Positions 59,376 through 60,570 of a stretch of DNA of 64,000 nt are shown here, in pieces (within the stretch, counting starts at the first letter, position 1; the number at the start of each line of letters is the position of its first letter). The notes under the pieces were generated by a model, which saw only the letters and a program-made list of their open reading frames with translations, was not told the origin of the DNA and ran no database searches. Origin of the DNA: Escherichia coli (GTDB lineage Bacteria > Pseudomonadota > Gammaproteobacteria > Enterobacterales > Enterobacteriaceae); the NCBI RefSeq assembly GCF_003018115.1, contig NZ_CP027457.1; one strand, given 5' to 3'. The position numbers and the translations under genes are program-made.

Positions 59376-60137
59376 ATGGAAACCGTATTGCATGCACTGA
59401 AAGCGATGGGTAAAGCCAATTCTGTTGAACTGGCGGCGCGGCTTGATATCAGCCGTGAAGAAGTTCTCAACGAACTGTGGGAACTCAAAAAAAATGGCGT
59501 TGTTGATAAAACGGGTCACACCTGGTTTCTGGCTGGTGAAGGTGAATCCGGGGTAACCGAAGAACAGCCAGCACAGTCTGAAGTACCGGATGTGCTGACC
59601 GGGGAGGTCGAACAAAAAGTTACCGCGGACATGATGATTGAGTTTATCTGTCAGGATGGGGCTAAAACGTGTGAGGAACTGGCGGATAAGTTCGGTGTTA
59701 GCATTCGCAAGGTTGCTTCCACGTTGGCGGTCGTAACAGCAACGGGGCGCCTGGCACGCGTAAATCAGAACGGTAAATTTCGTTACTGCATACCGGGCGC
59801 TGATTTACCGGCAGAGCCGGAAGCTGCATCCGTAGCGGAAACCGATGGTAAAGCCTTTCCTCAGCCAGCAGGTGTTGCGTTACCAGTCCAGGAAACGACG
59901 ACACAGGAAGAAATGAAAACAGAAATCGTGGAAGACATTGTGAAGTTACAGCCATCGGTCACCGAAACGAAAGCAGATGACCTGATTCTACCATCGCTGC
60001 ATGTGGCTAACCGCGAGCTGCGCCGGGTAAAAGGTCAGGTTCAGAAGTGGGAGCGAGTCTGCGCCGCGCTGCGGGAGCTGAACAAGTGCCGGGATATTCT
60101 CCGGGATATTACCGCCACCAGAGAACAGCTGCGGTGA
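59376..60137 (+). CDS. hypothetical phage protein with two winged-helix-like segments
   Basis: 253-aa ORF; wHTH-like [18 protein letters not shown] and [17 protein letters not shown]. Confidence 0.6.
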
Positions 60138-60382
60138 GTGGGTGGAAGACGTGGTGCCGGGCTGAAATTCTGATACTCCGGCAGTGCGCGGGAACGATGA
60201 CTGTCGAAAGTATCGGCAGTCTGATTGGTCGTAGCGAGGCAGCGGTCAGAGCGAAAGCCCGGGATAAGGGAATAAGCCTGATGCTGCAGGGTGATTTTCG
60301 CCTGTCAGCCAAATTACCGTATAAAGCGATGGACTGCCTGAAGCGAAACGGACTGATTGGCGCTGAGGATAGTTTACGATGA
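60134..60382 (+). CDS. hypothetical protein, translationally coupled
   Basis: ORF 60047..60382; GTG at 60134 overlaps the upstream stop (GTGA). Confidence 0.4.
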
Positions 60383-60465
60383 CCAGGCCTGAGGCATTCG
60401 TAACGGTAGGAGTTGCAATGGCGGTAGCGCTGGTGGTTTATTCGATTTGCCGCTGGGGTTGACGT
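60379..60465 (+). CDS. 28-aa hydrophobic single-TM peptide ([27 protein letters not shown])
   Basis: hand-translated; ATG overlaps stop of upstream ORF (ATGA); not in ORF track (under 60 aa). Confidence 0.3.
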
Positions 60466-60546
60466 AATTACTAATCCGGGGCTATATTCACCGCACGGTC
60501 GAGTTGACCGTCGGGATTGAGACCCCGGATATTCAACCGCGACAGA

Positions 60547-60570
60547 CACACGCCGCGAGCGTGTTTTTTA
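60547..60570 (+). terminator. rho-independent terminator ending the replication-side operon
   Basis: acacgc-cgcga-gcgtgt hairpin followed by TTTTTT. Confidence 0.7.

Follow-up and report, generated by a model that had tools for sequence, protein, structure and literature searches.

A probable 27-codon membrane-protein microgene, bounded by its own start and stop codons, in lambdoid phages of Escherichia coli

Can an open reading frame (ORF) of 27 codons, lying at the end of a prophage operon, be a gene, and if so, a gene of what kind? The question is raised by positions 60379..60462 (plus strand) of a 64,000-nucleotide (nt) stretch of Escherichia coli contig NZ_CP027457.1 (assembly GCF_003018115.1), called here the window, where a Rac/Qin-like lambdoid prophage holds a micro-ORF of 27 codons plus stop. 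Its ATG (60379-60381) overlaps the TGA of the upstream ORF (60380-60382) as ATGA, and a Shine-Dalgarno-like GAGGA (60365..60369, plus strand), read from the sequence, lies 9 nt 5' of the ATG inside the last codons of the upstream ORF. An earlier annotation made without database searches (the sequence-only reading) had listed in order a DnaC-like gene, an ORF of 253 amino acids (aa), an 82-aa ORF attached to it by GTGA, the micro-ORF attached by ATGA, and a hairpin, all of which are present where it had placed them. Because short ORFs are common by chance, the significance of the micro-ORF has to be argued entirely by comparison. The comparisons described here make it quite probable that 60379-60462 is a genuine protein-coding gene for a predicted 27-residue single-pass inner-membrane microprotein, a member of a previously uncurated family carried by E. 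coli and Shigella lambdoid phages and by a few virulent phages.

Copies of the micro-ORF were collected with two DNA patterns. The first, with two anchors separated by a variable gap of 31-61 nt, found it in at least 120 viral contigs, which together with the loci in hand gave 130 copies; the second, aimed at a divergent branch, gave 73, for a total of 203 from viral contigs and phages. The gap between the anchors proved to be constant, 46 nt in 130/130 and 43 nt in 73/73, so that there are no insertions or deletions (indels) between the anchors in 203 copies, and about 95% of the first 130 are intact. The 69 distinct DNA sequences encode 38 distinct peptides, three of the 69 having an internal stop, in every case at codon 3; each remaining forward frame is closed in 68-69 of this set. 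In codons 8-22, which the pattern leaves free, codon positions 1, 2 and 3 have diversities of 0.154, 0.086 and 0.316, and the ratio of non-synonymous to synonymous variation (pN/pS) is 0.42 in the micro-ORF frame versus 0.95 and 1.97 in the other forward frames, a value reached by none of 300 column shuffles (mean 0.96, minimum 0.446). A plasmid-borne copy with 74.5% nucleotide identity still codes for MNWPEAFAITGVAMAIAFLVYVICRWG. In addition, divergent members detected by tblastn in 933W (MTWPEAFANVGTVMAVVLVVYSICRWR), VT1-Sakai and BP-4795 (MNWPEAFTAVGVAIAVAFILYSLFRWG), PhiR12 (MSWPDAIVTLGMVFAAAFVVYSICRWG) and the virulent Vequintavirinae phage Av-05 (MTWPEAFTTVGVVMAVAFAVYSVCRWG) retain W3, P4, G11, Y21, R25 and W26. 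The family consensus peptide is MTWPEAFxTVGIAMAVALVVYSICRWG, and the window copy is its W3R variant. On these comparisons, the reading frame, length, start and stop of the micro-ORF are under purifying selection. The conservation among homologues to which the sequence-only reading had looked for confirmation was thus found, both in the integrity of the frame, apart from six disrupted copies described below, and in a balance of synonymous and non-synonymous change that is specific to this frame among the forward ones.

The limits of conservation coincide with the limits of the ORF. In 666R9, ArgO145 and pPE4, the shared block opens with the ~24 terminal codons of an upstream protein that differs among the three, followed by ATGA and MTWPEAFTTVGIAMAVALVVYSICRWG, and similarity ends just past the stop codon (TGA or TAA). 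In O157:H7 and further phage records only the 84-nt ORF is common, located 3' of DUF551 or other genes, and in the DUF551 contexts the blastn match begins at the ATG itself (query 68-70 to 149). At least five unrelated upstream C-termini are found (...RNGLISVEDILR; DUF551, ...PLPEPPQEVNQ; ...NDLKNIEQEVNR; ...TVPDLLPLENNK; ...PWERGGHEEGDK), each upstream gene type providing a Shine-Dalgarno sequence from its own last codons, and 14 unrelated downstream contexts start directly after the stop, a TAA (110 copies) or a TGA (17 copies). The start is in the ATGA form in 126 of the 130 copies of the first set and GTG in two; in 121, an upstream frame of 50 codons or more ends on the shared TGA, and a Shine-Dalgarno-like GGAG, GAGG or AGGA is present at -5 to -17 in 125. 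Codon 2 always begins with A (ACC, AGC, AAC or ATC, encoding T, S, N or I), as expected if this A has to be retained for the upstream TGA. The initiation region is unstructured (fold z = +0.36). The alignments show the micro-ORF as an independent piece of the mosaic, whose ends are precisely its start and stop codons, with the ATG nearly always overlapping the TGA of whichever accessory ('ea'/nin-type) gene is upstream.

Such behavior might also be expected of a block that is conserved as DNA or RNA, either a 'linker' at lambdoid module boundaries or a structured RNA, in which the open frame is incidental. The block does sit exactly at mosaic junctions, with ~85% nucleotide identity between unrelated flanks, and 27-codon ORFs are frequent by chance. 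However, the third-position variation, with a pN/pS that no shuffle matched, largely refutes this explanation, and the lack of indels, a stop position held by either of two codons, retention of the peptide in the copy with 74.5% nucleotide identity, and the persistence of the ATG, the A of codon 2 and the Shine-Dalgarno sequence across five upstream genes all speak for a coding unit. An RNA element is disfavoured because the micro-ORF RNA is no more structured than its shuffles (z = -0.43), and no Rfam model matches on the ORF. We consider a conserved non-gene highly improbable.

Somewhat less far-fetched, though still very unlikely, is that the ORF is translated and the peptide itself is functionless, its role being to hold ribosomes at the end of the early accessory operon for protection against Rho or RNase or for proper termination of the upstream gene. 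The ATGA overlap is indeed kept, as is, in many contexts, the location at the operon end, often just before a hairpin terminator, and the unrelated upstream genes argue against a specific protein partner encoded upstream. On the other hand, a device of this kind would not account for W3, P4, G11, A13, Y21, R25 and W26, which are near-invariant even in the tblastn matches from 933W, Av-05, PhiR12 and VT1-Sakai, nor for substitutions that are conservative and hydrophobic and a length fixed at 27 codons. The interpretation as a gene whose peptide matters is therefore preferred.

The family is widespread. Of 5426 complete E. coli genomes, 1560 match the block 60310-60474, 1075 of them with at least 80% coverage, and there are up to eight places per genome; in otherwise unrelated phage contexts the block recurs at ~85% identity. 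The micro-ORF is present in lambdoid phages including the Shiga-toxin (Stx) phages, e.g. 933W and VT1-Sakai. It has no match in the four lambdoid cryptic prophages of K-12 MG1655, which plausibly explains its absence from the K-12 small-protein catalogues. The sequence-only reading had called it invisible to annotation, and this is correct insofar as it is annotated neither by RefSeq and the NCBI annotation pipeline PGAP nor in the reference records of 933W, VT1-Sakai, Stx2 II, BP-4795 and Av-05; a few GenBank genomes do contain an entry for the identical peptide, named 'bacteriophage protein' or 'hypothetical protein'. Our literature searches (small proteins, prophages, ribosome profiling, the motif ICRWG) found no description of the peptide, although one may exist. 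Among GTDB species representatives, the back-translated WPEAF...ICRWG pattern gave a single match, on a 1.8-kb contig labelled Segatella copri (JAJXBQ010000377.1, a metagenome-assembled genome of Bacteroidota). This contig carries E. coli-phage-like sequence, in which the C-terminal coding tail described below is followed by the micro-ORF, here lacking 1 nt in codon 2, and then by a hok leader, and it is probably a mis-binned contaminant. At the stringency of this motif, the family appears to be confined to E. coli and Shigella phages.

Not all of these are temperate. In the virulent 121-kb myovirus Av-05 (L133, 2501-2584), the micro-ORF is ATGA-coupled to Av05_00123, and the relatives TH18, 24-2-1 and 19-1-2 also carry it, amid 'eae/EaA'-type genes. 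Judging from these genomes, the accessory block with the micro-ORF is exchanged between temperate and virulent phages.

Several observations count against the interpretation as a gene for a functional membrane peptide. Chance alone could give a 27-codon ORF, as the surrounding 8 kb contain 132 ORFs of at least 20 aa. The search patterns fix residues 4-7 and 23-27 (or 3-6, 21 and 25-27), so conservation at these positions is partly circular, and only the tblastn matches test it independently of the patterns. Six copies are disrupted, two by a 1-nt deletion in codon 2 (L025 and the contig labelled Segatella copri, L129) and four by a nonsense codon 3. The window copy carries the rare W3R and follows a pseudogene. 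The peptide does not appear in the supplements consulted for two small-ORF surveys, Huecker 2017 and 'The Cryptic Bacterial Microproteome', and the former, a ribosome profiling survey of enterohaemorrhagic E. coli Sakai, scored only ORFs of at least 30 aa. Insertion into the membrane, topology and partner are, like the choice of function made below, inferred. Finally, the antisense frame that shares its third positions with the sense frame has a pN/pS of 0.34.

This last value invites the proposal that the real gene is on the opposite strand, either the 146-aa reverse ORF 60109-60549 or 'ORF C38' of phage Stx2 II, and that the forward frame mirrors its constraint. A long reverse ORF does span the region, and one old record annotates such an ORF. 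However, the antisense frame with the low pN/pS has a stop in the window itself, and the reverse frames are interrupted in 6, 15 and 51 of the 69 distinct sequences and vary in frame and extent with the context. Moreover, homology ends at the forward start and stop, so that no reverse ORF longer than 27 codons is conserved. A gene on the minus strand is scarcely credible.

If the forward frame is the gene, what could its product be? The 27-aa peptide of the window, taken for a transmembrane peptide in the sequence-only reading, is strongly hydrophobic, with a grand average of hydropathy of 1.1 and a best 19-residue Kyte-Doolittle window of 2.35, starting from residue 6; across the family the best window is 2.1-2.45, and the small-residue face G11, A13, A15, A17 is invariant. 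The peptide has no match in Pfam, PADLOC or PDB. The only NCBIfam match is KdpF (TIGR02115), at 13.9-14.7 bits versus a cut-off of 26.85, and the best PHROG matches are to unnamed families with E-values of 0.0065-0.019; both KdpF and phrog_4612/38566 were rejected as relatives, being noise from a hydrophobic segment. Other identities were also discarded. Membership in a 121-aa DUF551 cluster comes from partial frame-bridging fragments, DUF551 itself ending in ...PEPPQEVNQ* unfused to the peptide; a frame-shifted C-terminus of a longer gene is at odds with unrelated upstream genes and a frame that is closed upstream; a lipoprotein signal would rely on YSIC, a poor lipobox, and would give a 4-residue product. 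A part of the hok mRNA is not tenable with hok downstream in only 49/127 contexts, nor is a leader peptide or regulatory upstream ORF, since there is no fixed downstream gene and the 14 unrelated contexts include terminators and opposite-strand genes.

A second tiny ORF accompanies some of the copies. In 21 related loci, for example on the plasmid mentioned above (L007, 2689-2793), the micro-ORF variant MNWPEAFAITGVAMAIAFLVYVICRWG is followed ~35 nt on by a membrane ORF of 34 aa, MSDDLSLAMEGALAVISVVGVYCLVVFLMDRMGN, with an AAGGAGG Shine-Dalgarno sequence (PGAP WP_077779993.1). The two are alike in layout, with an acidic N-terminus, ...VY... and an R-x-G C-terminus, and the 34-aa ORF may be a paralogue or a partner of the micro-peptide.

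As to expression, a consensus scan of 59300-60459 found no promoter-like site 5' of the micro-ORF. Because the micro-ORF has no promoter of its own and is located in the post-replication block on the pR side in the window and, in 933W, VT1-Sakai and BP-4795, in the pL-distal 'ea' block, its mRNA would be supplied by early lytic transcripts (from pR here, from pL in 933W), and it would be silent in a repressed lysogen. Translation would proceed by coupling or re-initiation from the upstream gene, aided by its own Shine-Dalgarno sequence. The peptide would then insert with N-out/C-in topology, E5 being on the N-terminal side, R25 on the cytoplasmic side, and W3 and W26/Y21 at the interfaces, and the small-residue face could pack helix against helix, either in self-association or with a larger membrane protein of host or phage.

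In this the peptide resembles the regulatory single-pass inner-membrane proteins of enterobacteria of the KdpF, AcrZ, MgtS, CydX and PmrR type, which have fewer than 50 aa, one hydrophobic helix, interfacial aromatic residues and charged flanks, and are encoded by tiny ORFs tightly coupled to a neighbour and routinely unannotated; the proposed action, through binding to a larger membrane protein, is alike as well. In contrast to them, the micro-peptide is phage-borne, has interchangeable upstream genes and no known partner, and there is no sequence relationship. It also has much in common with the lambdoid 'ea'/nin accessory genes (Ea22-like, DUF551, phrog_660, DUF1627/YdaW): the location in the same distal early-left or post-replication early-right operon, mosaic horizontal exchange bounded by genes, and probably the same non-essential role in interaction with the host. 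It differs from these in being far smaller, predicted to be membrane-embedded and unannotated, an 84-nt unit docking on the stops of 'ea' genes. We tentatively suggest that the peptide is the founder of a new family of phage host-takeover microproteins, which would be made early in the lytic cycle, reside in the inner membrane, bind a host membrane machine and alter physiology or block superinfection; this is possible, though far from assured. Its target could be a transporter, a respiratory or divisome component or a DNA-entry route, and the gene could have spread as an 84-nt plug-in onto the stops of accessory genes.

Size and composition would also suit a small membrane toxin like those of type I systems, which upon early-operon expression would depolarise or permeabilise the inner membrane and thereby contribute to host shut-off or abortive killing. 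Like Hok/Gef, IbsC, ShoB, TisB and DinQ (19-50 aa), the peptide is a short, very hydrophobic single span, in which small-xxx-small motifs could drive oligomerisation. The hok/sok locus is directly downstream in the 49 contexts noted above, and elsewhere the micro-ORF adjoins toxin-antitoxin modules; in addition, a lysogen would need no dedicated antitoxin for a toxin in a CI-repressed early operon. However, the hallmarks of type I loci are missing. No Rfam antisense or antitoxin RNA is found over 60379-60462 on either strand, the sok match being 900 nt away and paired with hokD; the minus strand has no promoter-like site (by a consensus scan only); and the flanks are not conserved, so a conserved antisense gene cannot extend beyond the micro-ORF. 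Unlike translationally locked type I mRNAs, the micro-ORF combines an unstructured initiation region with a good Shine-Dalgarno sequence that no fold hides, and it is coupled to an upstream gene. It matches neither Hok, Ldr, Ibs, TisB nor any other Pfam or NCBIfam family, the hok link is not obligatory, there being 13 other downstream contexts, and genomes hold up to eight copies. We regard a toxin as unlikely. A modulator of a membrane protein seems preferable to a stand-alone type I-like toxin because the locus has no antisense RNA, sequestered Shine-Dalgarno sequence or promoter of its own, and because up to eight copies are tolerated.

The evidence described so far concerns the family, and the window copy itself may be impaired. 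The reason for concern lies immediately upstream. The 82-aa ORF (60134..60382, plus strand), whose GTG start overlaps the stop of ydaW as GTGA, is annotated by PGAP only over 60134-60313, its first 60 codons, as a pseudogene of a truncated 'DNA-binding protein' 'missing C-terminus'. Its residues 5-55 resemble phrog_323 and residues 58-82 the C-terminus of phrog_660/924 proteins, so codons ~1-59 represent the N-terminus of a helix-turn-helix (HTH) 'DNA-binding protein' and codons ~59-82 the tail of a phrog_660/924-type 'ea' gene. By blastn, 60100-60314 matches the full-length 93-aa HTH gene of O157:H7 (L006, 790-1071), whereas 60310-60474 matches the block of tail plus micro-ORF of 666R9 and ArgO145; the switch in DNA homology falls at 60310-60314, and the junction is in frame. 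The O157:H7 order is DUF1627, the HTH gene, four more small genes, DUF551, the micro-ORF and hok. Since O157:H7 has intervening genes between the HTH gene and the micro-ORF, the window arrangement is interpreted as an in-frame deletion. On this homology, the 82-aa ORF joins the N-terminus of the HTH gene to the 24 terminal codons of a phrog_660-type gene unrelated to it. The fusion being in frame, the ATGA coupling to the micro-ORF is kept. The 'mini-operon' that the sequence-only reading had seen after the replication genes is thus no designed unit, one of its members being a deletion chimera. The GTG start of the chimera is plausible because its N-terminal residues are kept in phage proteins of PPompW (residues 1-62) and D6 (residues 4-67).

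The family may accordingly be real and the window copy a decaying non-functional remnant, an alternative compatible with the interpretation as a gene family. In its favor are the chimeric upstream pseudogene and the W3R substitution at a position where W is found in 35 of 42 distinct peptides and where all nonsense alleles fall. On the other side, the ATGA overlap and the Shine-Dalgarno sequence survived the fusion, the arrangement of chimera and micro-ORF is kept in 144 genomes, and R3 occurs in five copies, in several peptide backgrounds and with both AGG and CGG codons, which suggests that the change is tolerated. We are inclined to doubt that the copy is a remnant, though the prospect is a real one. 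The window region 59376-60740 is 100% identical to that of O178:H19 strain 2012C-4431 and 97.6% identical to that of O26:H11 11368.

Codon 3 deserves a separate remark. It is changed from TGG to TAG in O104:H4 2011C-3493 (L008, 2501-2584) and in two further loci (L039 and L104), with the remaining peptide conserved (MT*PEAFAIVVAAISIALIVFAICRWG), and every nonsense allele seen falls at this codon, the same one that is altered by W3R in the window. A second recurrent feature is the tail of the upstream genes (60310-60382 in the window; also L003, L004, L005): ~24 C-terminal residues, CKLPDKAMxYLERNGLISVEDILR, are common to otherwise different proteins (phrog_660, 924, 8171, 30109), and this tail is always directly 5' of the micro-ORF. 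The tail may be a small domain with a function of its own, or it may owe its conservation solely to the ribosome-binding site of the micro-ORF that it carries.

The gene upstream of the chimera, the first after the DnaC-like gene, encodes the 253-aa YdaW protein (59376..60137, plus strand), which belongs to Pfam DUF1627 (PF07789; 2.5e-84, 281 bits versus a gathering score of 28.1) and to phrog_630 (1.2e-129). Two winged-helix-like segments had been claimed for it, and weak HTH or winged-HTH matches are indeed found at residues ~3-48 and ~83-136: Pfam HTH_11 and HTH_PafC are below their cut-offs (3-48, 87-133), and the PADLOC CARF-associated winged-HTH models match residues 3-48 and 83-157.

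On the other side of the micro-ORF, the hairpin that had been read as the clean terminator of the operon turns out to be the 3' end of a small RNA (sRNA) with a promoter-like site of its own. A sigma-70 promoter-like site (60459..60488, plus strand; TTGACG, 18-nt spacer, TATATT; 10/12, a consensus match only) overlaps the micro-ORF stop codon with its -35 hexamer TTGACG and is the putative promoter of an IsrK-like sRNA and an antirepressor unit. The IsrK-like Hfq-binding sRNA (60495..60569, plus strand; Rfam RF01394, 51.2 bits versus a gathering score of 50, E = 2.6e-10) matches the full model, 1-77, including the terminator hairpin and U-tract. A terminator scan puts the hairpin at 60548-60564, 85 nt past the micro-ORF stop, with a U-run to ~60570, and the stretch 60463-60575 folds with z = -3.9. 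The hairpin may stop read-through from upstream too. It is followed by a C4-type antisense RNA like that of P1/P7 immI (60595..60679, plus strand; Rfam RF01695, 69.4 bits versus a gathering score of 45, model 1-87), with a weak match to the c4-a1b1 target model (60482-60531; 27 bits, under the gathering score), and by a gene for a 183-aa ORF6N-domain protein of KilA-N/antirepressor type (60734..61285, plus strand; Pfam ORF6N, 1.9e-20; annotated by PGAP). The ORF6N gene is cargo of this inserted IsrK/C4 cassette and lies outside the micro-ORF operon. The cassette, inserted exactly at the micro-ORF stop, is one of the 14 downstream contexts and common to nine loci.

Judged by its sequence matches, the cassette resembles a cross between two control modules, P1 immI and Gifsy-1 IsrK-AnrP. 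In isrK-orf45-anrP of Gifsy-1, read-through of the IsrK terminator gives rise to an mRNA isoform (PMC4825925). As in these modules, the isrK and C4 matches of the window precede an antirepressor-type gene; the differences are that the cargo is an ORF6N protein and that the cassette is tied to the micro-ORF solely by abutting its stop.

The remaining genes follow a lambdoid order. A dicA-like repressor (56424-56831, minus strand) comes first, followed by a cro/dicC-like gene, YdaT, an O-like replication gene (57580-58599) and the DnaC/IstB-like gene (58606-59346; Pfam IstB_IS21, 5.8e-14). Within the O-like gene, at 57966-58129, there are five tandem 23-nt iteron-like repeats with the core GGTCAAAATG and a spacing of 23-24 nt, and then three 12-nt repeats, CAGAGAATACAA, which code for ENTT repeats; this array is probably the replication origin, located within the initiator gene as it is in lambda. 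Beyond the ORF6N gene are sok/hokD, an oppositely oriented RelE-type toxin-antitoxin pair, DUF968, RusA and Q. The sok antisense RNA (Rfam, 117 bits) overlaps the hokD leader and adjoins hokD (61388-61712), and the RelE/ParE-type toxin is paired with an HTH antitoxin on the opposite strand (61815-62523), so that two addiction modules are located directly downstream of the early region.

Thus what is new is the micro-gene family itself, a family of predicted single-pass microproteins of phages and prophages that is widespread in medically important phages. It offers a clean example of the spread of a microgene, as an 84-nt unit bounded by start and stop that reuses the stop and last codons of unrelated genes. 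The reassignment of the terminator to the IsrK/C4 antirepressor cassette also affects how the regulatory organisation of this prophage is read. Provided that the peptide is made, 933W, Stx phages of the VT1/VT2-Sakai type and a large fraction of pathogenic E. coli hold an unannotated early membrane protein, and if its function is in host takeover, lysis timing, exclusion or toxicity, it would bear on the biology of Stx-phage induction.

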